Positions 21,053-54,805 of a stretch of DNA of 64,000 nucleotides are shown piece by piece. The notes under the pieces are model-generated. The model searched no databases. It was not told where the DNA came from and was given only the letters and a program-made list of their open reading frames with translations. The translations under genes were made by a program, and so were the position numbers. Origin of the DNA: a virus; IMG/VR virus record IMGVR_UViG_3300027811_000039, positions 21,149 through 85,148 of that record. The stretch is one strand, 5' to 3'. Numbering within the stretch: position 1 is the stretch's first letter; every line of letters begins with the position of its first letter.

Positions 21053-21406
21053 TTAACTTTTAATTTCAATGACATGTGGACTTACTGTGCCAGTAAATGC
21101 AATTGCATAAACCTTTTGACTTTTAGTTGGATCTAATCTAATTGTCGCTGATGTTCCAGAATCAACTAAAAATCCATCTACCGTATTAAGACTTGTTGTG
21201 TTTTTTATAAAAAATAATCCCGAGGTATCATTTTCTATAAACAGAGTATGCCTCTCACTTAATGTAGTGGTACCAGATTTTAATTCTGTGACTGCTGTGG
21301 TAGTTAACGCTACTGTGCCTATTCTAGTTCCAGATCCCCAACATTCATTATCTAAGATAGTCCCATAACCCCTATGATTCGCTGGTGCTGGTGGAGTAAA
21401 AGGCAT
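21053..21406 (-). CDS. Putative virion protein
   Basis: Thr-rich beta-strand protein in the tail module. Confidence 0.55.
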   Translation of the reverse strand: MPFTPPAPANHRGYGTILDNECWGSGTRIGTVALTTTAVTELKSGTTTLSERHTLFIENDTSGLFFIKNTTSLNTVDGFLVDSGTSATIRLDPTKSQKVYAIAFTGTVSPHVIEIKS

Positions 21407-33801: not shown

Positions 33802-33879
33802 AATATTACACCCCTTCCATATATTTTCAGTATATACATACTTAATCAGCATGTATAATTCAATTTGGGGTGGTTAAAC

Positions 33880-34422
33880 ATGAAGAAACCCAAACTTTAT
33901 ATAGGTGATAATAACTTAATTAAAACTTGTTCTGATTGTGGACATATTAAAGAAATAGGCGAATTCCATAAGAATAAGAATGGACTCTTTGGTGTTAGGG
34001 GAAATTGTAAACATTGTAGAATTGAGTATAATAGAACATATTCAAAAAATTACGCTAAAACTCCAAAAGGAATAATTACCTGTGCTCGTTCAATCAAAAA
34101 ATATCAGTCTAGCGAAAAATATAAAACGACCTCAAGGCTATATTGGCAAAATCACAAAGAGGCACTGAACAGAAAAACTAGAAATGCAAAAATCAAACGA
34201 AAGATAATTATGGATCAATTTGAACCTATAGATCATATTCGCGTAGCCAACAGAGATCAATGGACATGCTACTTGTGTAATAAACAAATTGAAGGAAATG
34301 ATTTATCCATTGATCATGTTATTCCACTTTCAAAAGGTGGCAGTCATACATATGAAAATGTTAAAGCCACTCATTTAATTTGTAATTTAAGAAAGGGAAC
34401 AAAACTAATCAAAGTCATATGA
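33880..34422 (+). CDS. HNH endonuclease (opposite strand)
   Basis: C..C...K...EF...C..C N-terminus and W.CYLC...SIDHVIPLSKGG.H...N+...H..CN..KG. Confidence 0.9.
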   Translation: MKKPKLYIGDNNLIKTCSDCGHIKEIGEFHKNKNGLFGVRGNCKHCRIEYNRTYSKNYAKTPKGIITCARSIKKYQSSEKYKTTSRLYWQNHKEALNRKTRNAKIKRKIIMDQFEPIDHIRVANRDQWTCYLCNKQIEGNDLSIDHVIPLSKGGSHTYENVKATHLICNLRKGTKLIKVI

Positions 34423-34459
34423 CCACATGATGTGAAACACCTCCCAACACAAAAGGCAG

Positions 34460-34714
34460 CTATTTAGCTGCCTTTCCTTTTGACTCCTTCTTTAAATCTT
34501 CAACATTTCCATCCGTTATGCCGAATAATTTTTCCCTTTTTGATTTAACATCCAATAACGAACCCCTATAAATGATTCGCCCTAGAATTAACGCCACCAT
34601 TCTTTGTTCATTAACATTATTGAATTGCTCAGTTGTATAAATCTCTCCCGCCTTTAATGGCAAATCATCAAATCTATATCCATTCCTCAAAACTAAATGA
34701 TATAGTTCACTCAT
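34460..34714 (-). CDS. Hypothetical protein in the head-neck module
   Basis: ATGA-type overlap with the upstream gene. Confidence 0.55.
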   Translation of the reverse strand: MSELYHLVLRNGYRFDDLPLKAGEIYTTEQFNNVNEQRMVALILGRIIYRGSLLDVKSKREKLFGITDGNVEDLKKESKGKAAK

Positions 34715-35670
34715 TTTTGTGGCCTTCCCTTCGGCTTAGAATAAACGTCTAATCTAGTTGGATTTCCAAGTCGCATAATATATTCAACATCGTGTAATGC
34801 TCCAAGAAGATTTTGCTCGGCTTGAAGTTGCTGATTAGCTTGTTCCTGCATCCCAATCCTTTGTCTTCTGGTATTTTCAACTCGCTCAATTAATTCTGTA
34901 CGTCTTGCTTCCAACTTTTGCATATACGCTGTCGCATCATCGTAACCATAAAGGAATGGACTTAGGAGGAGATCCGAAACAGGTGGTTTATAGAGTTTAA
35001 TGCCCTTTCCCCTAGCCCACCCAAGGAAGAACTCACAACTTGGTCTTTGGTGCTGGAACTCTTGATCCTGTGCCATATTGACACCATAAACCTGAATATC
35101 CTTGTAACCCATCTTGATCGCAAGGGCTATCATCCATGAAATAGAATTGGTGAAATATGATCTCTGTCTAACATCTGGTTGATCCAATGCCATTTCTTCA
35201 CCATATATATCAAACTCTTCCAGAACTTCCTGTAATGGATATTCAATCGAATTCGGAATGTTTGGATGTTTTCTCCACATGAGTACAGGACACTTTAAGA
35301 AACCAAGATTCCTAACTTGTTGTGCATCCCTAATTGTTGGTGGCTCATAACCATGCAATTGAAACCACGCTGTTGCTCTTAATGCAATCTTGGGCCTATC
35401 TAGATACAACTCATTCAATGCCCAAACATCAATACCTTTTGCATCAAGTGGTGCCCATTTCAAACTGTCAGGTGCAAATCCAAGAATCATAACACTATCG
35501 TTATATCTCTTGAATTCATAGATCTCCTCTTTTGAAACTGTAGCTTTCGATAAATCATAGAATTTAGGAATTGGTTTTTCTACTTCAACTGGTTGATCAT
35601 TTTCAATGATAGTCTCTCTTACCTCTTGATCCAACATCGTTAATTCTTCACTCATAAATTTAGTGGGCAT
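34711..35670 (-). CDS. Cst-II(GT42)/Maf/DUF115-like Rossmann-fold transferase candidate
   Basis: MILGFAPDSL...DVWALNELY and TNSISWMIALAIKMGYKDIQVYGVNM parallel Cst-II IIAGNGPSL...DVFRCNQFY and TSGVYMCAVAIALGYKEIYLSGIDF (recalled from memory). Confidence 0.55.
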   Translation of the reverse strand: MPTKFMSEELTMLDQEVRETIIENDQPVEVEKPIPKFYDLSKATVSKEEIYEFKRYNDSVMILGFAPDSLKWAPLDAKGIDVWALNELYLDRPKIALRATAWFQLHGYEPPTIRDAQQVRNLGFLKCPVLMWRKHPNIPNSIEYPLQEVLEEFDIYGEEMALDQPDVRQRSYFTNSISWMIALAIKMGYKDIQVYGVNMAQDQEFQHQRPSCEFFLGWARGKGIKLYKPPVSDLLLSPFLYGYDDATAYMQKLEARRTELIERVENTRRQRIGMQEQANQQLQAEQNLLGALHDVEYIMRLGNPTRLDVYSKPKGRPQK

Positions 35671-35717: not shown

Positions 35718-36104
35718 TTAGCTAGATCCAAAAGTGCTTCCGATATTAGAAACAACGAAATATTTTACTGCTGATACGGCAATAAATTGCACAACTTCCC
35801 CTCTGGCACTTAAATTAAATGACCTTCCTGTACTTGATACGGTTGAACCAAAAAGGACTGTAGTTGTATTTGGAATAATCTTATACGAGGAAGATGAGCC
35901 AGATTGAACTAGGCAAATGACTGTTTTATCCACCCCAGCATAAAGCGGTGGATCAATTCTGAATGTTCTTACACCCGCCTTGGTTGAAGATAAGGTTGTT
36001 ACCCCATAACCAGTAATAGCTGTCCCTGTACTTGTAACAGCTTGTATAGCATATCTTTCATCATACGTTTTCATGAATGGACGTTGCTCTTTTTCAAATC
36101 CCAT
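35718..36104 (-). CDS. Ser/Thr-rich putative virion protein
   Basis: Directly after the major capsid gene, with beta-rich composition. Confidence 0.55.
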   Translation of the reverse strand: MGFEKEQRPFMKTYDERYAIQAVTSTGTAITGYGVTTLSSTKAGVRTFRIDPPLYAGVDKTVICLVQSGSSSSYKIIPNTTTVLFGSTVSSTGRSFNLSARGEVVQFIAVSAVKYFVVSNIGSTFGSS

Positions 36105-36137: not shown

Positions 36138-36163
36138 GGGAAGGTCACTCTTTGAACCTTCCC
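36138..36163 (-). terminator. Hairpin after the major capsid gene
   Basis: GGGAAGGT-N10-ACCTTCCC with a weak U tract. Confidence 0.5.
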
Positions 36164-36174
36164 ATTATTTATGC

Positions 36175-37149
36175 CTAAGTTATAGCTGCCGAGAAGAAGC
36201 AACCTAAATCAGCCCCAACAACTTTTAAGCTATATGCCGATTCTCCTTCAATCCGATTAGCAGCATTTTGTTCCATGCGGAAATTCTTGATCCTGACACC
36301 TTCTGCTCCTGAACCAAAAAGTCCAGACCATGTGAACAGATACCCAGCAGAAGGTTGATACAAGCCTGGTGCTGGTGCAGCATATCCAAGGAATGCATTT
36401 TTACCATACACAAAACTATATGATGCTGTAGCAGTCTCATTTGCAGTATTCCTAACTGCCCTTGGTACAAGCACTCTCTCCACATCGAACAAAACAGCCA
36501 GAATTTCTTCTGTGATAACTCCTTTTTGGGTATATTTAACACGATCTAAAATATCTGGATGATTTTTCAATGTTGTATAAACCTGTGGCCCGAGAACTAG
36601 GCAATTCGGACGATAACCAGTTTTTTGAGAAATACTATCCGCTTCGTTCGTAATATCCTCAATAGGTGTACTGACGATATTATCCCAAAGTGTGAAATCA
36701 ACACCTCCAACTAGATCTGTCCCAGTCGTAGCACCAGTCCAAAGTCCAGTAGTGAAGAAATGTGTGACCCAATCAAGTTCACGTTTGAGAAGAATTTGTT
36801 GAGTTACATAAACGGTGTGTGATCTCTCAAGTTGCAACGGTTGATCTGCATTAGCTCTTGTTTGGTCGTCAAGATCCGCATGGTATCCGATTACATCACA
36901 AGAGTAATTATCTGTGCTCAAACGATATCCACCACCAGCAGTTTCTGCCCCCGGTGCCCTCAATTTAGCTTCACTACGGAAGAAATCAGCTTGTGAGAAT
37001 ACGAAATACTTATCACTCTTATTGGTAACTGGAACAATCGGAAATACTTTATTCGCAATGAAGTTACGTTCTGTATCCTGAATATATGCAATTGAAATGT
37101 TAGTTAATGCACGGTCTACATGAACATCCGATAAGGTAGGATTCGGCAT
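36175..37149 (-). CDS. Major capsid protein (HK97 fold, capsid protein E-like)
   Basis: P..SDVHVD..LTNIS+AY.Q....IA..VFP.VPV...G..PN.+V+G.....L..HP.I. Confidence 0.9.
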   Translation of the reverse strand: MPNPTLSDVHVDRALTNISIAYIQDTERNFIANKVFPIVPVTNKSDKYFVFSQADFFRSEAKLRAPGAETAGGGYRLSTDNYSCDVIGYHADLDDQTRANADQPLQLERSHTVYVTQQILLKRELDWVTHFFTTGLWTGATTGTDLVGGVDFTLWDNIVSTPIEDITNEADSISQKTGYRPNCLVLGPQVYTTLKNHPDILDRVKYTQKGVITEEILAVLFDVERVLVPRAVRNTANETATASYSFVYGKNAFLGYAAPAPGLYQPSAGYLFTWSGLFGSGAEGVRIKNFRMEQNAANRIEGESAYSLKVVGADLGCFFSAAIT

Positions 37150-37302: not shown

Positions 37303-37689
37303 TTAGGTTGTCATACCAACTGCCGAGAAAGCAACAGTAGCAATTCCACTAGATGCAGAAGCAACAAGAACAGGCCCATACATTGATGCTTTTGCAGGAA
37401 TAGCAGCCGTACTATATGCCAATCCATTGTTTGCAATCCAGAAATTGCTACCCAAAGCCATTGCACTCCTACATGCAATCTTGGAAATACATCCGGGAAT
37501 CCAAATTTCACCTGCATCTCCGGTAATAGGATTATTCTGCAAAATACCAATAGGATAAATTGCGGTCGTTGTTGCCCCAATAGCAAAATAATCTGCTACT
37601 GTCGATGCCCTAACACCCTGATATTGTCGGTTTTGCATACTGCTAGAAGCAATGAGTGAGAAACTTAAATTTTTGATATCGTAAGCCAT
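37303..37689 (-). CDS. Head decoration / capsid cement protein
   Basis: G+LQN.P..G.A.E+...G.SK+ pattern, located between the scaffold and capsid genes. Confidence 0.7.
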   Translation of the reverse strand: MAYDIKNLSFSLIASSSMQNRQYQGVRASTVADYFAIGATTTAIYPIGILQNNPITGDAGEIWIPGCISKIACRSAMALGSNFWIANNGLAYSTAAIPAKASMYGPVLVASASSGIATVAFSAVGMTT

Positions 37690-38609: not shown

Positions 38610-40073
38610 TTAGCTGACTGGCTTATCTACTGGTATCCTCCTAGAAAATCCACCAATTGAAAAACCATTGAACTTTTTTTCCTTGATCGAATCCCACATT
38701 TTGGCATCGTTGATCTTAACAGCCATTATCCAAGTGCCTTTTACGATATCTTGACCACCTAATTTAAAATCCAATGGTGCAAGATAACTTTCAACGACAT
38801 TTGCCTTGGCCTTGCCCTTGTGCGACTCTCCTACAACTCTGGAATCTTGCAAATAGATATGTGCAGTTTTTTCTATTTCCTCTGCACCTATTGTGTCATT
38901 CTGAGCATCGACACTTCCCGGTTCTAAAACTATGCCATACACAAGTTGCTTTTCTACATCAGCCTTGATTATATCTGCATAGATTTTTTCATCTTTTTCA
39001 TCACTAGGTTTTACTTTCTTCTTCGGCCTCTTCCAATCTGTAGAATCTATATGGACATCCCCTACGCTTGGCAACCCCTTATTAATTTCTTCAAGTTTAA
39101 TCTTGATTTGTTTAAGTTTTCTTCCAACCTCACCAGAATCATTAAACTTTCGGATTGCCATAGGGTGCGGTAAAACAAAATCAACATCTCCATCAAGAGC
39201 TTTTTTGGCCTTTTGCCCTAAAGCTACAATTACCTTTGGATTAGCTCTTTCTAATTCACCATCCAACCAATCTTTCCAATTACCAACTTCCACATCTGTT
39301 GGTTCCCTGACATTCCCCGATTTATCAACCAATAACATTGGTACAACATTAGTTAGAAATATATCATTACGGCCCAACCCTAATGGTTTGATATACATTT
39401 CATTAAAAGTTTCCCCACACGGCCCAACGAATGCTTCCCCTCGTAAATATTCAATCTTTCCCGGTGATGCTCCGACAAACGCTATTTCCGAATTTGCCCC
39501 ACCTGAACTCTTAACCATTGGAACTAATTCATCGCTTTTTTCTACTGGAGGAATTTCCTTTTTAAATGGACTGACCAATTTTTCATCTTCCCAAATCTTT
39601 CGCATTTTTGCATAGTATTTGTCAACATGATCTTTCATTCCCTGTATATCTTCTTTTGGAACATTTATTTGCGATGTTCCACCTTCTAGCATAGCCCCAT
39701 TTAAAATTGCTGCAGAAGTAAATATTGCTCTAGGTATCGCCATCAATTTTCCATCAATCACATTTGCAATTGGAAATTTATATCCACCAAAAGCTTCCTT
39801 GTTTTCATCATCAACCCATAAGAAACCTTGGCTAAATTTACCCCAATTTATATCTTCCTTATCCGTTCCCCTTGCCCACTCTCTGATATTTTTTTCCGCT
39901 TCTGATCCATCCCATTCCAATTCTCTATCAGCAATGGGCAAATCCTTGAACGGTGTTACTCCCTTTATGATTTCCTCTGGAACTGCTATTTCATGGATCT
40001 TGTCAAATGTTTCTTTTGGTATAAATTTTTTGAGAGTATCCAAGACTACATCTAAATACTCCTGAACTTGCAT
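38610..40073 (-). CDS. XkdF-like prohead protease-family protein with a central uracil-DNA-glycosylase-like domain
   Basis: C-terminal LVYG+VLEP..VD.Q.D...EEIEK.AH...H...VVESY.AP...GTW+M...W..+K...+NGFSIGG. Central FVG.SPG..E...G.AFVG..G...TNVV...P.VIVALG..A...HP. Confidence 0.8.
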   Translation of the reverse strand: MQVQEYLDVVLDTLKKFIPKETFDKIHEIAVPEEIIKGVTPFKDLPIADRELEWDGSEAEKNIREWARGTDKEDINWGKFSQGFLWVDDENKEAFGGYKFPIANVIDGKLMAIPRAIFTSAAILNGAMLEGGTSQINVPKEDIQGMKDHVDKYYAKMRKIWEDEKLVSPFKKEIPPVEKSDELVPMVKSSGGANSEIAFVGASPGKIEYLRGEAFVGPCGETFNEMYIKPLGLGRNDIFLTNVVPMLLVDKSGNVREPTDVEVGNWKDWLDGELERANPKVIVALGQKAKKALDGDVDFVLPHPMAIRKFNDSGEVGRKLKQIKIKLEEINKGLPSVGDVHIDSTDWKRPKKKVKPSDEKDEKIYADIIKADVEKQLVYGIVLEPGSVDAQNDTIGAEEIEKTAHIYLQDSRVVGESHKGKAKANVVESYLAPLDFKLGGQDIVKGTWIMAVKINDAKMWDSIKEKKFNGFSIGGFSRRIPVDKPVS

Positions 40074-40135
40074 TATCAATCTCTCCTTCCTCTCAAAAAT
40101 AATAAAAAGCACCGACTAAACCAGATACATTTTAA

Positions 40136-44733: not shown

Positions 44734-45438
44734 TCAAATTAGGCATCTAAGTAATTCAAATCCCTCTGCTGAACTCATTCCCACTATTGACCCCATATTA
44801 CAGGCCATTAATTGAACTAATTCAGTCGATCTAGGATGCGGGAAATCTCTGATCTCCGTGTCATAACATTTCAACGCATTCACCTTTAATTCTGTGAATA
44901 ATCCAACATCCATAAAAACATTCGGGCTAAAACTCCCAAATGCCGAAAATGTCCATTCTGTACTCGATGGTATCGGGAACATATAAATAGCTGCAACCCT
45001 ATGTTTGCCCTGCATCGGCCTTGTTGCCGTAATTACTGCCCTATTTGTAATACAATGATCAATATTTAGATCCTTTTGAGAATGCGTGAATATGCAATCT
45101 GGTTTTATCTCTTCAATGATTTCCTCAATAGATTTAACTATGGTCAATAATGGAACAGTATCGAACTTATTGTCTGGATAATCAAAAAATCTCATATATT
45201 TCTTAGTTTCTACCTTTGGGATCCCCATCAATACAGACATCGCAGACCTTGATTTCTCTTTGACTTTTTCTTTCTCGAAATCTAATAACTTATCATTATC
45301 AGTCCTTGATGTTAATCCATAACTCATATACACAATATGGACGTTTTGTTCATCCATCCTCACCGATCTAGCTATAATTCCACCACATCCAAGCACTTCA
45401 TCATCTGGATGGGCAGCTATCACCATTATCTCAGGCAT
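44734..45438 (-). CDS. PIG-L/LmbE-family deacetylase
   Basis: AAHPDDEVLGCGG...D+N+DH. Confidence 0.9.
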   Translation of the reverse strand: MPEIMVIAAHPDDEVLGCGGIIARSVRMDEQNVHIVYMSYGLTSRTDNDKLLDFEKEKVKEKSRSAMSVLMGIPKVETKKYMRFFDYPDNKFDTVPLLTIVKSIEEIIEEIKPDCIFTHSQKDLNIDHCITNRAVITATRPMQGKHRVAAIYMFPIPSSTEWTFSAFGSFSPNVFMDVGLFTELKVNALKCYDTEIRDFPHPRSTELVQLMACNMGSIVGMSSAEGFELLRCLI

Positions 45439-46127
45439 TACATCAAATCCCCCATCAATAATTTCGCTAGTTTAAGATCATGTGCCGTATTGATATCCAT
45501 TGCTCTTTCCTCACTCACATAGTAAGGCATTATTTTTGGCATATAAAAATCTTCATACTGCATAAAACTCTTAGTCCTAACGAAAATAATTGAACCATCA
45601 TGGATATATGCCGATTCCAATTCAGTATGTTGAGTATCAATATCATCTGGAAACATCGGTTCCACTAGGCCAGTTTCCTTATTCACCCTAAGCGAATGCT
45701 TGGGTGGATGCTTCAATTTACTCACACTCATTACCCCATTTATCCCTGTATGCTTTTCCATCAATGCTGACGCTGTTCTTAAATCATTAATGGTTCTGAG
45801 TGGTGATGTTGGGATAATTAACGCTATATTATCGAAATGATTTTCTTCCGCACAATATATCTCGGCAAGATATTTTACCAATGTCCTAAGTTTGCAATGA
45901 TCACCACTGAGATTGGGTGGCCTCAAATGCAGGGCCACTTTATATTTTGATGCGATATCTAAAAATGATCTTTCATCACTCGTCACAACAATTTCAGAAA
46001 AAACTCCACTTGCTACCGATATTTCTATTGCGTGTTCCAATAAAGATTTCCCATTAATCATTTGGATATTTTTCTTTAATAATCTCCTTGATCCACCTCT
46101 TGCTGGGATTATAGCTAATGTTCCCAT
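45438..46127 (-). CDS. Acylneuraminate cytidylyltransferase (NeuA/PseF/SpsF family)
   Basis: AIIPARGGSRRL..KNI..+NGK.L...PTSPLR...DI.T..D. Confidence 0.93.
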   Translation of the reverse strand: MGTLAIIPARGGSRRLLKKNIQMINGKSLLEHAIEISVASGVFSEIVVTSDERSFLDIASKYKVALHLRPPNLSGDHCKLRTLVKYLAEIYCAEENHFDNIALIIPTSPLRTINDLRTASALMEKHTGINGVMSVSKLKHPPKHSLRVNKETGLVEPMFPDDIDTQHTELESAYIHDGSIIFVRTKSFMQYEDFYMPKIMPYYVSEERAMDINTAHDLKLAKLLMGDLM

Positions 46128-46146
46128 CCTTTTCCCCCCGCTTCAC

Positions 46147-46851
46147 CTACACCAACATAGCCACCAAATTCCATGTTGCTTCTTTATTTTTTTCTGGTGT
46201 GATAATTTGAGATTCTTTATACTCTAACAACTCTATCTCAAATCCAGATTCAGCAAAAATACTACTAAGATGTTCCTTCGTGCTAAAATGTACTGCTCCA
46301 CAACCTGAAAATTTTCCCGCATTGAACATGAATGTAAATGGATCACCCGCATTATCCTCAGTTACTCTCCCAACCCTTTCACCATGTTCCCATGCAAACC
46401 AATCAATGCCAACAAACTTTCCTGCTGGTTTTAACTTTTCTGCTATAAATGCCAAAGAATCCAAAATGCTCATTGTCGTATTATGTGTCAAGGAACTTCT
46501 ATCAATCACAAGATCAAATTTTTCATCGAATGGAATTATTTTAGTAAAATCAGCATTGACAACCTTATCTGCTATTTCTGGATATTTATCACGAATCAAC
46601 TTAACGGCTGTCGGACTACCTTCAATTGCATAATATTGAACACCAATGGAAAGGAAATAAGGTATATTTGCACCAATTCCCGGCCCCAACTCTAAGACCT
46701 TATCACCCTCCACCAAATTAGCATATCGTTTTACATATTTGATCAAATCAGTCCAAGGCCACAATGAATGGCTCTTTCCCACTAGATATCTCTCTTCCCA
46801 CTCTTTTGCTATCATCATTCCACCACCATATAACTCATAGTGGGACACCAT
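46147..46851 (-). CDS. Class I SAM-dependent methyltransferase (start probably near 46815)
   Basis: KVLELGPGIG...YAIEGS...FDLVIDR.SL.H. Confidence 0.85.
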   Translation of the reverse strand: MVSHYELYGGGMMIAKEWEERYLVGKSHSLWPWTDLIKYVKRYANLVEGDKVLELGPGIGANIPYFLSIGVQYYAIEGSPTAVKLIRDKYPEIADKVVNADFTKIIPFDEKFDLVIDRSSLTHNTTMSILDSLAFIAEKLKPAGKFVGIDWFAWEHGERVGRVTEDNAGDPFTFMFNAGKFSGCGAVHFSTKEHLSSIFAESGFEIELLEYKESQIITPEKNKEATWNLVAMLV

Positions 46852-47498
46852 TCAAATCTCTGTAACCGAATATTTTTTAGTCCTAACGTTTCCCTAATTG
46901 CTAATGTTTCACCGGGCCAATTTTCATTATTTGCCTCGTCAAAAGCTATCACCGAACCCCTGACTATTCTTTCTTTGCATAATTCTAAGCACACCCTTGT
47001 TGGCTCATATATATCAAAATCAAAATATGCTAGAGCAACAATTGTTTCTGGATGTTTACGAAAATAATCTGGCAAGCTAAAAAGCACATTCCCTTTCACC
47101 AACTCATGTTTAGATATGTGGCTAATAGGACTTGCCTTTTCTTGTTCCACCAATATTTTTTCTAGATATTCTTGGTAGTTTTTAGTAACTCCCATATCTC
47201 CAATTTTTGCATCCCCATCATATTCAGACACTTGTGGGAATCCCTCGAAAGTATCAAAACCAACAATCTTTCTTGTATAATTAAACGGTTCAAACATCCC
47301 TCTTAGGCATTCAAATATAGCCATATCTTGACCCCATCTAACTCCAAACTCAAAGATATTACCATGAACATTTATGATCTTCCTATATAATTCATAAAGG
47401 AATATAACTCTGGTTAATGGCTGTCTCTTGATAAATAAATTAAGATTAGATAACATTTCATGCTCAGGTATCGGACAATCCACAAACATACTTATCAT
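46815..47498 (-). CDS. TylF/MycF-family sugar O-methyltransferase
   Basis: G.IFEFGV..G...GFDTFEGFP...ALAY.D.D.YEPT...G.+IAFDE. Confidence 0.85.
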   Translation of the reverse strand: MISMFVDCPIPEHEMLSNLNLFIKRQPLTRVIFLYELYRKIINVHGNIFEFGVRWGQDMAIFECLRGMFEPFNYTRKIVGFDTFEGFPQVSEYDGDAKIGDMGVTKNYQEYLEKILVEQEKASPISHISKHELVKGNVLFSLPDYFRKHPETIVALAYFDFDIYEPTRVCLELCKERIVRGSVIAFDEANNENWPGETLAIRETLGLKNIRLQRFEWCPTMSYMVVE

Positions 47499-48241
47499 TT
47501 AACTACCCCATCCAAAGTTATTTTTTTAACATTACCGCTCATGATTATATCCAAAGAATTCGGCCCCTCGTTGAATAAAAGGTCAATTATGCCCATAAAA
47601 GGAATGAACTCCCCATGCAATTGCCGATATATCGGGTGGATATATTCCTGAAAATAAGGTTGGATATTATTTACCCTAAACGATTCCCTATTTGCATAAT
47701 TCTGACCTTGCCCACCAAAGATATAGATATCAGCTTCGAGTGTCTTGCACATATCTAAAACAAGATCATTCTTGACACCCTCAAAGCTATAATTAACCGC
47801 ATAGTCAACTTCTGTCTTAATACCTAATATCTTCAAATACCAATCAAACATATGGTTGTTTAAATCAATCAGATATTTCCAATCTCGTCTATAAACATCT
47901 TTAAAAAATTCTGCATATTCATTAAAATATTTAGCTTTTTTATAAGCTAAGTAGATCGAAGTCCAATTCTTATCTCTCCATCTGGTGCTGTTATTTATCT
48001 CGATCTCAGCTATGGTTTTATTACGGTGATCTTTCTTTAATACAGGAACAGTCAACCACATATAACCAGAATGTGTCTTTATCTTGTTCCTATTCATCCA
48101 ATCCTTATTGCAATATTGAACTTGATCAAAATGGATATATTTATCAGCCAATGCAACCTTGTGAAACAACCCCAACCAAGGTACATAGCTAGTTTGATGT
48201 GCTGTTAATACCATCAATTTATTCGGACTTAAAACAGGCAT
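47495..48241 (-). CDS. WbqC-family protein
   Basis: HQ..Y+PWLG.F.K...D.VQY....W.NRN+IKT...WLT+PV...Y.Q..GEF+P.+.I+DLLFN.G. Confidence 0.9.
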   Translation of the reverse strand: MPVLSPNKLMVLTAHQTSYVPWLGLFHKVALADKYIHFDQVQYCNKDWMNRNKIKTHSGYMWLTVPVLKKDHRNKTIAEIEINNSTRWRDKNWTSIYLAYKKAKYFNEYAEFFKDVYRRDWKYLIDLNNHMFDWYLKILGIKTEVDYAVNYSFEGVKNDLVLDMCKTLEADIYIFGGQGQNYANRESFRVNNIQPYFQEYIHPIYRQLHGEFIPFMGIIDLLFNEGPNSLDIIMSGNVKKITLDGVVK

Positions 48242-49194
48242 TCCTTCACCACCATTATTATAAATTCCACCTCTTCATCGGTGAGATTCGGATAAATCGG
48301 TAATGATACTAGACTTCTAGTAAGTTCTAATGCATTCGGGAAATATTCCTTTATGCCCAATAACTCCGATTCCACAATCGGTATAATCGCCCTAATGCCA
48401 TGCAATGCCAATACCTTAACAAGTACCCTCGCCTTACTAGTTATCAATATAGCCCTATACCTGACATCCTCTATATTTTCCTTCTTACTCCACAACATAG
48501 GCAACCCAGCCATAACATATTTGCTGAATATTTCTTCCCTACGTTCAATGAACCTTCCCAACTTAGCTAATTGAACCCTGCCAATCGCTGCTTGTAAATC
48601 AGTCATTTGAAAATTAAATCTTGGCTTTAGGTCATCCCTCATATCAAATTCTCTGAAATCCCTTATTTCATCTATTTGATCTCTTGACCACGATACAACT
48701 GCCCCACCCTGTCCACCACTAGTAATAATCTTTGTTGCCGAAAATGAGAATACCCCATAATCTCCAATTGTCCCAACGAATCTGTCATTAACCTTCGCAC
48801 CCAATGCCTGTGCTGCATCTTCAATGAACGGTGTTTTCATACTCTGAATATAATTAGGGAATCCAAACATATGAGTAACGATATTCAAATCAATTGCATC
48901 CACATCCTTAGGACACGGAACACAATTTGCCATAATTATGGCATTTCTCACGGATGAACAAGTATAAATCGGATATGATACCCTCTCTATTCCTAGTTGC
49001 CTTATCGCTAAATATAAAGCTGCAGTTCCACTACTAACGGCTACTGCATGACCATCTGGAATTCCAAGATACCTGCACAATTCATTTTCAAATCCCTCAA
49101 CCTCTTTGCCTTGTCCAACCCATCCAGATTCAATAACCCTATTTGCAGCCCTCATTTCATCCGTGCCCATAGTTGGGCAATTATGAGCTATCAT
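48229..49194 (-). CDS. DegT/DnrJ/EryC1/StrS PLP aminotransferase
   Basis: AVSSGTAAL...IEDAAQA.G...FSFSATK.IT.G..GG. Confidence 0.9.
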   Translation of the reverse strand: MIAHNCPTMGTDEMRAANRVIESGWVGQGKEVEGFENELCRYLGIPDGHAVAVSSGTAALYLAIRQLGIERVSYPIYTCSSVRNAIIMANCVPCPKDVDAIDLNIVTHMFGFPNYIQSMKTPFIEDAAQALGAKVNDRFVGTIGDYGVFSFSATKIITSGGQGGAVVSWSRDQIDEIRDFREFDMRDDLKPRFNFQMTDLQAAIGRVQLAKLGRFIERREEIFSKYVMAGLPMLWSKKENIEDVRYRAILITSKARVLVKVLALHGIRAIIPIVESELLGIKEYFPNALELTRSLVSLPIYPNLTDEEVEFIIMVVKECLF

Positions 49195-49640
49195 GGCCTA
49201 ATATAATATCCTGCTCTGATATTCATCGGATTCCCCCAAACCAAAGAATAAGGCGGGATCTTCCCCGGCCCAACCATTGTTCCAGCAACAATAACCGAAT
49301 GATGCCCTATAGTAGTTCCACCCTTTACAACTGAATGTGAACCAATGAAAACATTGTTCCCGATCCAAATCCCTTTTCGTTCAATATCTTCTGAGAATCC
49401 AAGGCATTTTTTATGGGAATCTGCTGCATTGATAGCAACAAATGAAGCAATATCACAATCATTTTGGATCACAACATTCACACCTTTGGCATTTATTTCA
49501 GAAAACGCCCCAATGTAAACATTATCCCCAATCACAGGACTTCCCTTAACGATCACCATCGGATGGAATCTATTTATATCCAACCCCAATAATTCAATGA
49601 TTATCTTTTTCATTCTCGCTTTTAAGGATATCTTTATCAT
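49191..49640 (-). CDS. Hexapeptide-repeat (left-handed beta-helix) acyltransferase
   Basis: IGDNVYIGA...IG.NVFIG..SV+..G..IG..S+I.AG. Confidence 0.85.
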   Translation of the reverse strand: MIKISLKARMKKIIIELLGLDINRFHPMVIVKGSPVIGDNVYIGAFSEINAKGVNVVIQNDCDIASFVAINAADSHKKCLGFSEDIERKGIWIGNNVFIGSHSVVKGGTTIGHHSVIVAGTMVGPGKIPPYSLVWGNPMNIRAGYYIRP

Positions 49641-50634
49641 TCAACTTTTCCCCTTTTCCAATATCCCTAGAAGCAATCATGCCTAAGAATAGATCAATAT
49701 TTATTGGTGCCAACCCATCACTCGGACGCATCATGCCTAAATTTTTATCCGTAAATAGATCCCCTGCTTTTATATCTAATATTGCTGTCAAACTTCTTCT
49801 AGCTATCTTCCTCATGGCCTCTTCTTTTTTAGTCGGCCTCAACCCACTAGAACCAAGCATTTTGTCTGCTTTGTGAATTGCCTCAACCCAATCTTTCAGA
49901 TCTTGGGGATTCTTGCTGAATTTATGATCTGGCCCAATATCACTATTGGATAGAGTAAAATGTGTCTCAAATACTCTTGCCCCGAAACCCAACGCCAACA
50001 CCGCAGCAATATGTCCTGTTGTATGATCCGAATAACCAAGCAACATATTCGGTAACACCTTTGAAATCTTATCCAACTTTTTCATATTCACTTCATCTGG
50101 CATTGTTGGATATAAAGATGTGCAATGCAGGATAATAAGAGGATAATCATCATCATTCCCCTTTATCACATTAACTGCTTTCTCGATCTCTTCTTGATGT
50201 GCCATCCCGCACCCTAGAATGATAGGTAATTTTGTTGCCGAATATTTCCTAAGCAATGGTAAATTATTCAGATCATCCGAACCAACTTTTATTGCCTTGA
50301 TACCCAAATCTAAAAGCAATTCTAAATCCGAATAGTTTTGTGGCGTTGATAAAAACGTGATACTCAACTGTTCTGTCCACCTTTTTATCTGTCTCCATTC
50401 ATCAACTTCCAACTCACAAGCCTTAAATGTTTTATATAACTCTGCATTAGGATTACAGAATTCATCAGCCTTGAAGGTCTGGAACTTGATCGCATCAACA
50501 CCCGCTCTTTTAGCTGCCCCAACCATCTCCATTGCTGTTTTCAGATTACCATTATGATTAATCCCAACCTCAGCTATAGTAAATGGTCTATGATATCTAC
50601 TTATCGTCCTGCCCCTAATCTGGATTTCCCTCAT
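49594..50634 (-). CDS. N-acetylneuraminate-synthase family (NeuB/PseI/SpsE) with SAF domain, copy 2
   Basis: IAEVG+NHNG...DAIKFQTF...KVGS.D..N..L...LHC.S.YPT...GYSDHT.G...E.HFTL...GPDH. Confidence 0.93.
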   Translation of the reverse strand: MREIQIRGRTISRYHRPFTIAEVGINHNGNLKTAMEMVGAAKRAGVDAIKFQTFKADEFCNPNAELYKTFKACELEVDEWRQIKRWTEQLSITFLSTPQNYSDLELLLDLGIKAIKVGSDDLNNLPLLRKYSATKLPIILGCGMAHQEEIEKAVNVIKGNDDDYPLIILHCTSLYPTMPDEVNMKKLDKISKVLPNMLLGYSDHTTGHIAAVLALGFGARVFETHFTLSNSDIGPDHKFSKNPQDLKDWVEAIHKADKMLGSSGLRPTKKEEAMRKIARRSLTAILDIKAGDLFTDKNLGMMRPSDGLAPINIDLFLGMIASRDIGKGEKLNDKDILKSENEKDNH

Positions 50635-51710
50635 ACAAAACTAGTCCAATCATCCCATGTTATAACTTCATTCTTGGCAATATCCCTATTCACTCTCTTA
50701 CCGATCATTTGACCCATATAAAGAGGTGACACCCCAGTTCCCGGCCTCTTTGCACATAACATATCTTTGGTGATCACTTCACCCTCCGATATATTACAAT
50801 CTGCAACGATACTCGTTAAATACAAACATTTCATGGATAAATCTTCGATTGAAGGTTTTAATGCTTTTTCACCCATCACCAACTCAGCCTGTCTAATGTT
50901 CTTTACCCACTTCCTAAACTCAATCGGATCTAGTGCTTTGCTGTGATGATGCCCAACTGTATCCCTATTCATTGTCATCCTTTTTTCCATCAATTCTGCA
51001 CCCAACGCAACTGCCATTACATCGACTTTTGCATCTCTTGAATCTGCAGAATATCCAACTGGAATCCCTAACATCTCTTTTAAATATGGGATGCTGTTTA
51101 GATTTATTTTCTCTACCGAACTCGCATGGCTGCAATAAACCAACATGACCTCTGTTGCTCCATGCTTTTCAAGGAACTCCAATATCTGAACAACCTCACC
51201 CATGATTGCTGGCCCCAAATCAATCTGAATCGGCTTGCCTGTCTTTGCGACTGCTTCAAGTAATGGGTAATTCCTAAGATCCCATGAACCTATTTTATAA
51301 GCAGAAACATTAGCGTCTTCTGCCCATTGAACACTTCGCAACGAATCCACCGACAAATAAAAAGTTATCCCGATACTTTTTGCATATCTGGACAACTCTA
51401 TCAATTCCAATGGGCTAAATTGATGTTTCTTTAACATTTCAAACATATTTTCTTCTTGAATCCCACTAGAAGTCTCATATCTATATTTTACCGATTTATC
51501 CGACATAAAACCTTCACAATCAATAGTCTGAAACTTTACAGCATTTGCTTCTGCAACTTTTGCCTCATAGATCAATTCCTTTGCTGTCTCTAGACATCCA
51601 CAAGCCGTCACTCCTGTCTCAACAACAATATAAATTGGGTTCCCTTTTCCTATTTCATTTCCCCCAATATTAAAATGCGACCTGAAATTACTTCTCAGCT
51701 TCATTTTCAT
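50631..51710 (-). CDS. N-acetylneuraminate-synthase family with SAF domain, divergent copy 1
   Basis: AVKFQT...YKIGS.D..NYPL...GYS.D...EKR.T....G.HH...KRPG.G+.P. Several canonical NeuB residues differ (NHNG is TACG, SDH is SAD). Confidence 0.85.
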   Translation of the reverse strand: MKMKLRSNFRSHFNIGGNEIGKGNPIYIVVETGVTACGCLETAKELIYEAKVAEANAVKFQTIDCEGFMSDKSVKYRYETSSGIQEENMFEMLKKHQFSPLELIELSRYAKSIGITFYLSVDSLRSVQWAEDANVSAYKIGSWDLRNYPLLEAVAKTGKPIQIDLGPAIMGEVVQILEFLEKHGATEVMLVYCSHASSVEKINLNSIPYLKEMLGIPVGYSADSRDAKVDVMAVALGAELMEKRMTMNRDTVGHHHSKALDPIEFRKWVKNIRQAELVMGEKALKPSIEDLSMKCLYLTSIVADCNISEGEVITKDMLCAKRPGTGVSPLYMGQMIGKRVNRDIAKNEVITWDDWTSFV

Positions 51711-52222
51711 TTTACCCCCAACTTCAATTCCGCAAGTTTATCAATTGTTCTCTTCTCTAATCTGCTAACATAAGACCTCGAAATACCTATTAACTCTGCA
51801 ATTCTCTCTTGCTTTAATTCATAGTAAATTGCATAGGTAAAAATATCCCTTTGCCTCTGATTCAAAGAATTCAACACACCTCTAATTGCAATTATGTCCA
51901 GAACATTGTCATATTCAAGATGTTTTGAATCTGAAATTGATTCATTTAGATATTCTTTCAACTCTCTAGAAACATTCTTTCTTCTTAATGCCATTTTTAT
52001 CTCATTTTCCATACACTTAACTGCATATGTCGAAAACTTAGTTCCTTTATCTGGATTAAATGTTATTCCTGCTTTACATAAAGCATATGAAAACATAGAA
52101 AAAATTTCATCATAGTTATATGGGTACTCTATAGTACATTTATTTGACCACTTGTTAGCCATATATCTCGCCAGATTTAAGTTATCTTCCACCAATCCCC
52201 TTTGCTCTTCATTTAATTTCAT
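51707..52222 (-). CDS. Sigma-70 family factor, SigK-like region 4
   Basis: FNPDKGTKFSTYAVKCMENEI and IAELIGISRSYVSRLEKR. Confidence 0.85.
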   Translation of the reverse strand: MKLNEEQRGLVEDNLNLARYMANKWSNKCTIEYPYNYDEIFSMFSYALCKAGITFNPDKGTKFSTYAVKCMENEIKMALRRKNVSRELKEYLNESISDSKHLEYDNVLDIIAIRGVLNSLNQRQRDIFTYAIYYELKQERIAELIGISRSYVSRLEKRTIDKLAELKLGVK

Positions 52223-52253
52223 TCGCTTTACCTCCCACCAAAGAGTAAAGCCA

Positions 52254-52844
52254 TCAAGAAACGTGTTCTATTTCACTCGACTTCCTATTGAATTTCGCAA
52301 GTTTGTCAATGATTCTTTTTTCCAATCTACTAATATACGATTGCGATATTTTCAATTTGTCTGCTATGACTTTTTGCGATTCTTTATGGAAATAACGCAT
52401 AGTTATGATTTTCAATTCACGTTCTTTCAATATCTTTATCGCATCTTTAGCACACATTAAATCTAGTATCGCATCATATTGCAAATGATCATTATTGCTA
52501 ATGAACTCCTCTAACTCAACCGTATTCCCATCCGAATCCTCTGACATAATTCCATTTAGATATAGATCTGGCCCATTTCTCAACTGATTACCTTTTTTCC
52601 TGAAAGCCATTTTTATCTCATTCTCCATACATCTAGCAGCATAAGTTGCGAATTTAGCACCAGCTAAATTATCTGGATCAAAACTTCTTGCAGCTTTACA
52701 TAATGCAAATGAGAACATCGAAAAAATATCATCATGATCGAAATTCTGGACTCCACATTTCACCCATTTATGTGCCATATATCTAGCCAAATTTATATTG
52801 TCCTCAACTAATTTCCTTTGTTCTTCATTCATAATCATTTCCAT
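52254..52844 (-). CDS. Sigma-70 family factor, SigE-like region 4
   Basis: KFATYAARCMENEI and SQK.IAD.L.ISQSYISRLEKRII. Confidence 0.88.
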   Translation of the reverse strand: MEMIMNEEQRKLVEDNINLARYMAHKWVKCGVQNFDHDDIFSMFSFALCKAARSFDPDNLAGAKFATYAARCMENEIKMAFRKKGNQLRNGPDLYLNGIMSEDSDGNTVELEEFISNNDHLQYDAILDLMCAKDAIKILKERELKIITMRYFHKESQKVIADKLKISQSYISRLEKRIIDKLAKFNRKSSEIEHVS

Positions 52845-52889
52845 TTGCCTTCCCCCTCACAAGAAAACAAAAAAACGACTTTCGCCGTT

Positions 52890-53951
52890 TTACCTTGACG
52901 CTTCTCCCAACGCCATTATTATTAACTTTTGTTCATACTCACTCATGCTCGGATACAATGGAATGGTCAATAGGTATTTCCAGATCCTTTCCGCTATCGG
53001 TGTGGCTCCCGCCATATCATAGAAACTTTGGAGTGTTACTGGCCTGTAATGGATTTGAGTATTAATTTTGTATTCCTTCAACTTTTCGATAAACCTATCA
53101 CGATGTTGGGTTAATATTATATAAATGTGCCTTGCATTAGTCCTATTCTGCTCCTGCACAATTTTAGCAATATCTAATTCATCTAGAGCTTTGTCATAAA
53201 CACTAGATAATCTCTGTCTCGCCAAAACCAATTCTGGAATCCTTTTTATCTGGTTTAAACATAACCCAGCCTGAATATCTGACATTCTGTAATTATATCC
53301 AAGGAATATGGTATCCCCGTTTTCCCTTCCATGATTCCTGAATGCTTTCATGATCCTATAATTCTCTTCGCTGTTTGTGGTTATTATTCCACCCTCACCA
53401 CTAGTGATTAATTTAGATGGATGTAAACTGAAACAACTTAGGTCAACAAGGGTTCCAACCTTTTTGCCCATATATGATGCACCCAACGAATGACAAGCAT
53501 CAGCAACTACCTTTAGGCAATATCTTTTCGCTATACCATTGATCCATTCATAATCTACTGGTTGCCCTGCGAAATCTACTGGGATAATTGCTTTGGTTTT
53601 ATATGTGATCTTCCTTTCGATATCTGCAGGATCAATCAATAATGTTCTTTCACATATATCCGCAAATACAGGAACCCCACCCATATATTTCACCACATTT
53701 GCTGTTGCAACGAATGTCATGGATGGAACAATCACTTCATCCCCCGGCCTGATCCCTATCGCCATCAATGCAGTATGGAGTGCTGCTGTCCCGCTTGATA
53801 CAGCTACCGCATATTTTGCACCAACCGATTTTCTGAATTCATCTTCAAATACTTCTATGATCTCACCCTGCGTAATGCTTTTTCCTCTAAGAACCCTTAT
53901 GACCTCTTCAATATCTTCATCCTCTAACTGGTGTTTTGCATAGGGAATCAA
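52890..53951 (-). CDS. pseC: UDP-4-amino-4,6-dideoxy-HexNAc aminotransferase (PseC-like)
   Basis: IPYAKH.+..EDIE.V..VL....ITQG...DACHSLG...SLHP.K.IT+GEGG...LGYNYRM+DIQ. TTG start at 53951 with AGGAGG RBS. Confidence 0.85.
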   Translation of the reverse strand: MIPYAKHQLEDEDIEEVIRVLRGKSITQGEIIEVFEDEFRKSVGAKYAVAVSSGTAALHTALMAIGIRPGDEVIVPSMTFVATANVVKYMGGVPVFADICERTLLIDPADIERKITYKTKAIIPVDFAGQPVDYEWINGIAKRYCLKVVADACHSLGASYMGKKVGTLVDLSCFSLHPSKLITSGEGGIITTNSEENYRIMKAFRNHGRENGDTIFLGYNYRMSDIQAGLCLNQIKRIPELVLARQRLSSVYDKALDELDIAKIVQEQNRTNARHIYIILTQHRDRFIEKLKEYKINTQIHYRPVTLQSFYDMAGATPIAERIWKYLLTIPLYPSMSEYEQKLIIMALGEASR

Positions 53952-53973
53952 AGTTCCTCTACCTCCTAACATC

Positions 53974-54498
53974 CTAGAAAGCATTCCAAATGAACTCTTT
54001 GGCATAAACCTCATAGCACAATTTCCCGCCCCACCCTGCAAACTCGATTGGCTTTCTGCTTTTATATATAGATTCCAAGACCGAAACTTTAACAATCGTG
54101 TAGGTAGGATCATTGGATTTATAACCATTGACCCAAATTATTGCTGCATTTTGGCGAATATAACTTTCAAGTTGACCCTTCTTTAATCTGAATTTCACCA
54201 ACTTGTTGTTATTTGCTTTCACTTCAACAGGTTTTCCATTTAGGAGGAAATCTGCCTTAGTAGTAACTTCTGAATCATCTAGATAATCACCCGAATTGTC
54301 ACATCCATTTTCCTCAATTACCAACTCTTTACCATATTTTGATTCATAAATTTTTTTATATCTTTGAATAATATCTCGTTCCCTAGCCGTACTAACTGCA
54401 ATATCTTTTTCAAACACTTCCCTTGTTCTAGAATCCATTCGGTAATCAATTACAATAATTATCACCTTCATATGGATAAAAGAAAAAACCGCATTCAA
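53974..54498 (-). CDS. PD-(D/E)XK-like nuclease-fold protein (start uncertain, possibly 54438)
   Basis: KADFLLNGKPVEVK motif. Confidence 0.55.
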   Translation of the reverse strand: MNAVFSFIHMKVIIIVIDYRMDSRTREVFEKDIAVSTARERDIIQRYKKIYESKYGKELVIEENGCDNSGDYLDDSEVTTKADFLLNGKPVEVKANNNKLVKFRLKKGQLESYIRQNAAIIWVNGYKSNDPTYTIVKVSVLESIYKSRKPIEFAGWGGKLCYEVYAKEFIWNAF

Positions 54499-54503
54499 GC
54501 AGT

Positions 54504-54776
54504 TTATTGGAATTGCATTATTCGATATTTCCTCTCAGCAGATACCACATATGTCCCATCCTCAGTTTTCTCGACTACCATTACATATTCTGGTGGACAT
54601 TGGCCCTGCTCTATTTCCTCAAATAAATCTGAAATAGCGATATATTCCATTGTATCTTTATGGAACATCATTTCTGCTCTATATATAATCATTCTCCCTG
54701 TGATTGCCATAACCAACTCTGGCGATTCTAAAATATCTGATCTCGGAATATCAAATTGTCCCAACCTCAAATTCAA
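54504..54776 (-). CDS. Hypothetical protein
   Basis: 90-aa ORF with TTG start, immediately downstream of the repeat array. Confidence 0.55.
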   Translation of the reverse strand: MNLRLGQFDIPRSDILESPELVMAITGRMIIYRAEMMFHKDTMEYIAISDLFEEIEQGQCPPEYVMVVEKTEDGTYVVSAERKYRIMQFQ

Positions 54777-54805
54777 GGTTTATTCCCACTTTCCAATTTG
54801 ATTTT

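Follow-up and report, generated by a model that had tools for sequence, protein, structure and literature searches.

A phage protein family with a sialyltransferase/Maf-like fold and its candidate role in nonulosonate glycosylation of the virion surface

The window analysed here is a stretch of viral DNA 64,000 nucleotides long (IMG/VR record IMGVR_UViG_3300027811_000039, positions 21,149 to 85,148) and forms part of an 86.7-kb virus record estimated to be 99% complete. Shortly after its major capsid gene lies a gene for a 319-residue protein that is best explained as a pared-down, virus-specific representative of the sialyltransferase/Maf fold superfamily. With a probability of roughly 0.6, this protein transfers a pseudaminic-type sugar to a protein on the virion surface, probably the small knob protein encoded directly upstream (35718-36104). 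The computation establishes the fold of the transferase, its nucleotide-binding motifs, its two-way co-occurrence with NeuB and cytidylyltransferase genes, its place after the capsid gene and its pairing with the knob. From these we infer the identity of the donor, catalysis by His106 and Glu204, the acceptor and a product on the particle.

The transferase gene starts with ATG, with a G-rich Shine-Dalgarno sequence immediately 5', and Ser and Thr make up 7.5% of its product. An AlphaFold (AF2) model built on a 48-member family alignment divides the protein into a variable N-terminus (residues 1-57), a catalytic domain (58-245) and a long C-terminal helix (248-301). An earlier sequence-only reading had quoted three motifs from a 319-residue open reading frame (ORF) two genes downstream of the capsid gene. 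All three are found in this ORF, GFAPDSL at residues 64-70, DVWALNELY at 81-89 and TNSISWMIALAIKMGYKDIQVYGVNM at 174-199, and the order is as described: capsid gene (36175-37149), a 128-residue ORF (35718-36104), then the transferase. The gene and its landmarks are as follows.

34711..35670, minus strand: candidate nonulosonate (pseudaminic-type) transferase, 319 residues, from ORF, family profile and fold
35464..35481, minus strand: G-F-A-P-D-S, residues 64-69, counterpart of the Cst-II nucleotide-binding loop G-N-G-P-S in a hidden Markov model alignment
35353..35355, minus strand: His106 in a W-F-Q-L-H motif, from alignment and residue statistics
35074..35157, minus strand: Y-F-T-N-S...G-Y-K-D-I-Q-V-Y-G-V-N-M, residues 172-199, the strongest match to Cst-II (I-T-S-G...G-Y-K-E-I-Y-L-S-G-I-D) in the alignment
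35038..35073, minus strand: loop A-Q-D-Q-E-F-Q-H-Q-R-P-S, residues 200-211, with near-invariant Glu204 and Q-R-P-S; lid-like, predicted local distance difference test (pLDDT) 56
34768..34929, minus strand: C-terminal helix of 54 residues (248-301), family-wide in model and alignment

As a single sequence, the transferase has no match in PHROGs, NCBIfam or the PDB sequences, and the Pfam family CST-I (PF06002) is reached below threshold (E 0.013; 15.4 bits, where the cut-off is 25), in a match confined to residues 170-204, exactly at the third motif. Weak CST-I matches are found in 10 of 48 family members (best E 5e-4). For a profile of the 48 family sequences, the nine top matches among PDB sequences (best E 2e-5) all belong to Cst-II, Cst-I and a third bacterial sialyltransferase (9c08), and the profile aligns to Cst-II from the G-x-G-P-S loop through the end of the G-x-D strand (Cst-II residues 3-161). 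The likeness to Cst-II that had been proposed from the motifs is thus beyond chance. By alignment, the CMP-binding motifs of GT42 (CMP, cytidine monophosphate) are present, namely the G-x-G-P-S loop, the Asn31 strand and the T-S-G...G-Y-K-E-I-x-x-x-G-x-D block.

The transferase model (mean pLDDT 84, core above 90) shows the GT-A-variant (Rossmann-like) single-domain fold of Cst-I and Cst-II. In a Foldseek search of the PDB the best 16 matches are all GT42 enzymes (E 1e-5 to 2.5e-4), followed by pyrophosphokinases of the MptE type (HPPK) and then by human GT29 sialyltransferases. VIA, a fold comparison independent of Foldseek, gives Z 11.7 for Cst-I (2P56; root-mean-square deviation 3.3 Å over 166 residues, 19% identity), Z 9.6 for the Maf of M. 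magneticum (5MU5; 3.4 Å over 157 residues, 8% identity), Z 9.2 for M. tuberculosis SteA (9HMY), and values of about 7 for GT29 enzymes and about 6 for thiamin pyrophosphokinases. Because GT42 enzymes head both comparisons, with Maf and GT29 enzymes further down, the GT42/Maf-like fold claimed by the sequence-only reading holds.

Judged by Pfam thresholds and by catalytic residues, the transferase is nevertheless not a member of GT42 or of Maf. With Cst-II and Cst-I (CAZy GT42; PF06002; 1RO7, 2P56) it has in common the best profile and fold match, the CMP-sugar-binding motifs and the lack of a DXD metal motif. Unlike them, it belongs to a phage family with its own near-invariant His106, Glu204 and Q-R-P-S and a long C-terminal helix; it seems to be confined to phages, and its acceptor is likely a protein rather than lipooligosaccharide. 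With Maf enzymes it shares a related central fold and, presumably, the chemistry, namely transfer from CMP-pseudaminic or CMP-legionaminic acid to Ser/Thr residues of a structural protein exposed on the surface, with the gene beside those of its substrate and the sugar pathway. It differs from them in size (about 320 residues against 440-820) and has no TPR docking domain and no GlfM adaptor; its neighbours are head genes and no flagellin appears to be involved, although the genome was not searched for a flagellin gene. Maf enzymes dock their flagellin substrate through a C-terminal TPR domain or the GlfM adaptor (10.1101/2023.12.03.569772). Neither a TPR nor any other above-threshold Pfam domain is found in the 319 residues, where the catalytic domain is followed only by the single long helix, which at a guess serves oligomerisation or docking. 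No match to the MptE-like/MAF_flag10 family (PF01973, DUF115) occurs anywhere in the genome at E 0.01, and weak PF01973 matches are found in 3 of 48 family members (best E 0.0034). The MptE-type 6-hydroxymethylpterin pyrophosphokinase (8SD5) and SteA (9HMY) belong to the same fold superfamily with no sequence-profile match. Unlike MptE, the transferase has sugar-pathway and head genes as genomic partners; no pterin gene was noticed, and none was searched for.

The transferase family comprises 3,101 representatives at 50% identity (E <= 1e-3), and at least 551 relatives are found in IMG/VR. Every source-named member is labelled hypothetical, and a Pfam domain is on record for 1 of the 120 listed (PF07498, which is not a transferase family). 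Among 260 members Gly64 is conserved in 254, Trp83 in 253, His106 in 256, Pro145 in 257, Gly196 in all 260, Met199 in 249, Glu204 in 257 and Tyr241 in 255. Asn86, Asn175 and Ala200 are near-invariant, Q-R-P-S at 208-211 is also conserved, and the polar Gln208-Arg209 and Glu213 stay near-invariant across the 260 members at identities down to about 30%. His106, which the profile alignment places beside Cst-II Asn51, is a candidate catalytic or acceptor-site residue.

A further mark of function comes from the loop after G-V-D-M-A, in which at least 10 of the 150 representatives listed (P0122, P0141, P0174, P0176, P0182, P0184, P0211, P0213, P0224 and P0227) carry intein-type insertions of 155-305 residues. 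These start with C-[LV]-x-P...V-L-T and finish with S-H-N followed by Ser or Thr, and two hold a LAGLIDADG domain. The insertions are inteins and sit at two independent points, three residues apart, that flank the near-invariant Glu204-Tyr205. As inteins tend to home into those parts of an enzyme that are under the strongest constraint, their presence on either side of Glu204-Tyr205 marks the loop as the functional core of the transferase. In three IMG/VR loci (L061, L068 and L070) the gene seems split or interrupted at the intein site.

The window also encodes a pseudaminic-type nonulosonic-acid pathway, recognised through Pfam and NCBIfam.

44734..56254, minus strand: the pathway as a whole
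55271-56254: PseB, passing the NCBIfam equivalog cut-off (431.6 against 407.75 bits)
52890-54128: PseC-like aminotransferase, best NCBIfam match, below cut-off
50631-51710 and 49594-50634: NeuB-family synthases (Pfam), mutually 25% identical
45438-46127: PseF-like cytidylyltransferase, best NCBIfam match, below cut-off
other genes of the cluster: acyltransferase, second aminotransferase, WbqC, two methyltransferases, PIG-L deacetylase

Given PseB, the PseC-like enzyme, the NeuB pair, the PseF-like enzyme and the tailoring genes, the likely product is a CMP-activated pseudaminic-acid-type sugar; the PIG-L deacetylase, WbqC, second aminotransferase and two methyltransferases suggest a modified one. 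No GT2, GT1, GT28, Maf or NeuC-type gene occurs elsewhere in this 99%-complete genome, so the transferase is the only protein-glycosyltransferase-like gene found. The view that it is the transferase missing from the sugar cluster is thereby supported, with the refinement that the protein is not a GT42 or Maf member proper.

Co-occurrence with the pathway was assessed in 21 viral contigs of 36-101 kb carrying the transferase family. NeuB is present in 20 of the 21, including all 8 whose completeness is 90% or more, and a CTP_transf_3 cytidylyltransferase accompanies it in the same 20, which bears out the link to CMP-sugar genes that had been anticipated. The exception is a contig 60% complete, in which a NeuC-type gene lies at the very end (bases 149-904), so that its sugar cluster is cut by the contig end. 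Since the 21 contigs span four capsid-protein families, the figure does not recount one lineage. The base rate of NeuB in isolated-phage records is 3 in 50,697 (tblastn). In the reverse direction, the transferase family is found on 12 of 41 NeuB-bearing viral contigs and on 6 of the 8 near-complete ones.

The place of the gene in the genome points to the virion. Its surroundings in the window are as follows.

37303..37689, minus strand: 128-residue ORF that lies between scaffold gene and capsid gene and may encode a decoration protein, 18.8% Ser+Thr
36175..37149, minus strand: major capsid protein (phrog_1005, E 3e-91)
36138..36163, minus strand: terminator-like hairpin after the capsid gene and upstream of knob, transferase and orf84, by pattern match only
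35718..36104, minus strand: 128-residue all-beta knob protein with the fold of T4 gp9/gp10, tailspikes and capsid spikes, from model and synteny
34460..34714, minus strand: orf84, an 84-residue ORF overlapping the transferase stop codon by 4 nucleotides (translational coupling)
34452..34475, no strand assigned: palindromic, terminator-like hairpin where orf84 and the opposite HNH gene end, by pattern match only

Knob, transferase and orf84 would form a small unit between the two hairpins. The gene order in relatives with identities as low as about 35% is scaffold, capsid, one or two small genes, transferase and head-tail adaptors, and the transferase lies one or two genes past the capsid gene in four capsid families (phrog_1005, phrog_10, phrog_371 and phrog_267). 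In a few lineages it directly follows PseB/PseC or NeuB instead. The ORF at 37303..37689 is conserved only in closer relatives and orf84 only in close ones. Of all neighbours the knob family, and not the capsid gene, is the best conserved: it is present in 55 of 85 evaluable loci and directly upstream of the transferase on the same strand in 46 of 85. Such pairs include loci reached independently through NeuB (L164, L165, L168-L170) and 11 of 23 contigs from metagenome-assembled genomes (MAGs).

The knob has no match in PHROGs, and hhalign finds no relation between it and other genes upstream of the transferase (clusters c7, c22, c28, c33 and others). Its model is an all-beta domain (pLDDT 84.8) whose strong fold matches are phage virion modules only, at Z 8.1-11.3 with a sharp drop below: an Acinetobacter phage tailspike, the N-terminal domains of CBA120 TSP4, a Klebsiella phage baseplate protein and the capsid spike of Pseudomonas phage Pa223. 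T4 gp9 and gp10 are among the matches by Foldseek alone, with non-significant E-values. Loop residues 70-71, 81, 88 and 111 are Ser or Thr in 88-93% of members, with the two freely interchanged, a pattern that would fit selection for a hydroxyl; a structural role is equally possible. Many knob proteins carry N-terminal repeats of the type S-G-G-x-L-x-V-E-S-G-G, which suggests a fibre shaft. Close relatives of the window have two knob genes in tandem; among relatives at large, L004, L005, L006, L007 and L032 show such a tandem upstream of the transferase, one gene short (128-182 residues) and one long (295-433 residues).

The sequence-only reading had looked to capsid or decoration proteins as acceptors. 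The position beside the capsid gene is indeed conserved, and of the two Ser/Thr-rich neighbours named there only the knob at 35718-36104 is a widely conserved partner, a gp9/gp10-like spike knob and not a classical decoration protein. Ser+Thr content, on which that reading also drew, is 26.6% in this knob and 18.8% in the product of 37303-37689, against 14.8% in the capsid protein.

The transferase family appears to be virus-specific. In one genome each for 185,579 prokaryotic species, 23 transferase loci were found, all on MAG contigs with scattered taxonomic labels, and at least 13 of the 23 hold recognisable phage head genes (capsid, knob or head-tail adaptors). In the ESM Atlas the 100 nearest clusters are without names, and the three nearest shown are 94-100% viral. 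A virus-specific distribution fits an acceptor that is itself viral.

Taken together as a mechanism, the transferase would take, late in infection, a CMP-activated pseudaminic-acid-type sugar from the phage's own pathway, 9-20 kb upstream, and attach it to hydroxyl groups of Ser/Thr in a protein on the virion surface. The knob encoded directly upstream (35718-36104) would be the most likely acceptor, with the capsid protein or other head proteins as alternatives. Catalysis might rest on His106, Glu204 or both, in place of the His188/Tyr156/Tyr162 set of Cst-II.

To our knowledge, virion glycosylation by phage enzymes has so far been documented only for a few mycobacteriophages. In these, phage glycosyltransferases encoded by the capsid genes place glycans on capsid and tail-tube subunits (Freeman et al., 2023, PMC10527164, as cited in PMC12619734). 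The phage of the window resembles them in that its glycosyltransferase gene lies within or next to the capsid block, one or two genes past the capsid gene across four capsid families. The mycobacteriophage systems are said to use ordinary GT-A enzymes and host nucleotide-hexoses; the phage of the window, by contrast, encodes a predicted nine-carbon acidic-sugar pathway and a predicted enzyme of sialyltransferase fold. A literature search with most subscription journals outside its scope found no account of a phage nonulosonate transferase, of a nonulosonate-coated virion or of this transferase family.

Several considerations weigh against the proposal, beginning with its standing: the glycan coat is a computational reading and unproven. 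The residues of Cst-II that we take to be catalytic (His188) and phosphate-binding (Tyr156 and Tyr162, on a lid of about 33 residues) seem not to be kept, Tyr156 aligning with the near-invariant Ala200 and His188 with nothing. The Cst-II alignment ends at about residue 158, where G-I-D-F-Y-Q-N faces G-V-D-M-A-Q-D of the family. Past the G-x-D strand no invariant His is found among the 260 members, the loop there has about 12 residues against the 33 or so of the Cst-II lid, and a PDB search with the part of the alignment that covers residues 166-246 does not extend the match into the lid/His188 region. Because the catalytic residues of Cst-II are unconserved, the chemistry of the transferase is not readable from GT42. 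The essential Asp of Maf enzymes (D247 in Maf-1, D261 in Maf-2), taken to correspond to transferase residue 198 through the alignment to Cst-II Asp154 and not through a Maf alignment, is Asn in the window's copy. Among 260 members this residue is Asp in 169 (65%), Asn in 78 (30%), His in 5 and Glu in 5; Asn occurs across the whole identity range of the family, and Asn198 is therefore a normal variant rather than a sign of decay. In the VIA comparison the MptE pyrophosphokinase (8SD5) scores Z 9.8, nearly level with Cst-I. The Pse pathway of this genome has no recognisable PseG or NeuC-type hydrolase. In about a third of loci a different gene takes the place of the knob, and tail-tube paralogs also reach about 24% Ser+Thr, so that Ser/Thr richness alone, real as it is in the neighbours singled out earlier, does not discriminate. 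Finally, the complete genome of Microcystis phage Mvi-Yong1342-1 encodes a 27%-identical homologue and has no NeuB. This homologue (L001; PP496355.1, 41 kb; 34781-35584) is annotated 'type 11 methyltransferase' and lies just before terS; either its donor comes from the host or it represents a distant branch with another role.

Other functions can be set against virion glycosylation. The enzyme could be a nonulosonate transferase with a host acceptor (flagellin, S-layer or wall polymer) that remodels the surface of the infected cell, for example to block superinfection, since those relatives that have been characterised (Cst-II, Cst-I and Maf) have lipooligosaccharide or flagellin of bacteria as their substrates, and sugar clusters of phages are frequently taken for accessory genes that modify the host. 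The predicted complex of enzyme and knob, scoring 0.00, lent binding no support, although by the predictor's rule this is evidence neither for nor against it. A host acceptor is nonetheless unlikely: the transferase stays in the late head operon, between capsid and head-tail adaptors, across four capsid families and paired with a spike-type protein, it has neither the flagellin-docking TPR domain nor the adaptor that Maf enzymes need, and its family is found only on phage-like contigs rather than in surface-glycan loci of bacteria. Any enzyme of the pathway should co-occur with NeuB, and the gap left by PseG and NeuC-type genes in this genome and in 13 of the 21 related contigs could be filled by a nucleotide-sugar hydrolase; equally, the kinase folds among the matches (MptE at Z 9.8, thiamin pyrophosphokinases at about 6) and the absent GT42 catalytic residues would suit an MptE/thiamin-pyrophosphokinase-like kinase acting on a sugar intermediate. 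Such a pathway role is quite unlikely, since 8 of the 21 contigs hold a PseG-like or NeuC-type hydrolase besides the transferase family, the gene sits in the head module kilobases from the sugar genes in most genomes, profile matches go only to CMP-sugar transferases, and the pairing with the knob would be left unexplained.

That pairing, together with a long C-terminal helix as in many assembly factors and the missing GT42 catalytic residues, might instead indicate a catalytically dead fold serving as assembly factor or chaperone for the knob/spike protein. This is decidedly improbable for a family that keeps its nucleotide-binding motifs, His106, Glu204, Gln208-Arg209 and Glu213 across 260 members, and neither inteins at the Glu204 loop nor a strict link to a CMP-sugar pathway would be expected of a mere chaperone. 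Phage clusters can also place the CMP-activated sugar acid Kdo on cytosine (bioRxiv 10.1101/2023.12.21.572611), and with genes for a radical-SAM protein and a DNA glycosyltransferase of the TAGT family next to PseB in the window, the transferase could be a DNA glycosyltransferase that adds the sugar to phage DNA as a base hypermodification. A DNA acceptor is scarcely credible and was rejected on co-occurrence, TAGT being found in 0 of the 21 related contigs, closest relatives included, against 20 of 21 for NeuB; the conserved neighbours of the transferase, moreover, are head proteins and not DNA-modification genes. A TET/JBP search gave no match in this genome and none in any control genome either, which leaves absence not shown.

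If glycosylation of the virion is correct, tailed phages of many lineages make a bacterial-type sialic-acid-like sugar and place it on their own particles, which bears on how phages are recognised by bacteria, mucosal surfaces and immune systems. A very abundant family of hypothetical proteins would gain a function, glyco-engineering would gain a compact protein-directed nonulosonate transferase (core of about 190 residues) with a small acceptor domain, and the altered catalytic residues would constitute a new mechanistic branch of the GT42/Maf fold. A wider proposal, to which we give slightly less than even odds, is that the virus-only family (more than 3,000 clusters at 50% identity), a dedicated gp9/gp10-like head knob and a phage-borne CMP-pseudaminic-type pathway equip many unrelated tailed phages with a self-contained system for sialylation-like modification of the virion, with a His106/Glu204 apparatus unlike that of any characterised sialyltransferase family and an acidic coat that would serve stability, adhesion or evasion of host or animal recognition.

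Other features of the window lie near these genes. Sporulation-type sigma factors on this genome suggest that the host is a Firmicute that forms spores. Between PseB and terS, 56508-58831 encodes a radical-SAM protein, a ParB_N protein and a DNA glycosyltransferase of the TAGT family, perhaps a DNA-modification module in its own right that only this phage has. The prohead protease gene (38610-40112) is a 500-residue fusion in which a uracil-DNA-glycosylase-superfamily domain (204-321) precedes an XkdF/S78-type protease domain (381-493). On the plus strand, an HNH endonuclease gene (33865-34422) breaks into the head operon and separates orf84 from the first adaptor gene; it looks like a recent homing-endonuclease insertion, because the adaptor directly follows orf84 in L002, L005 and L006.

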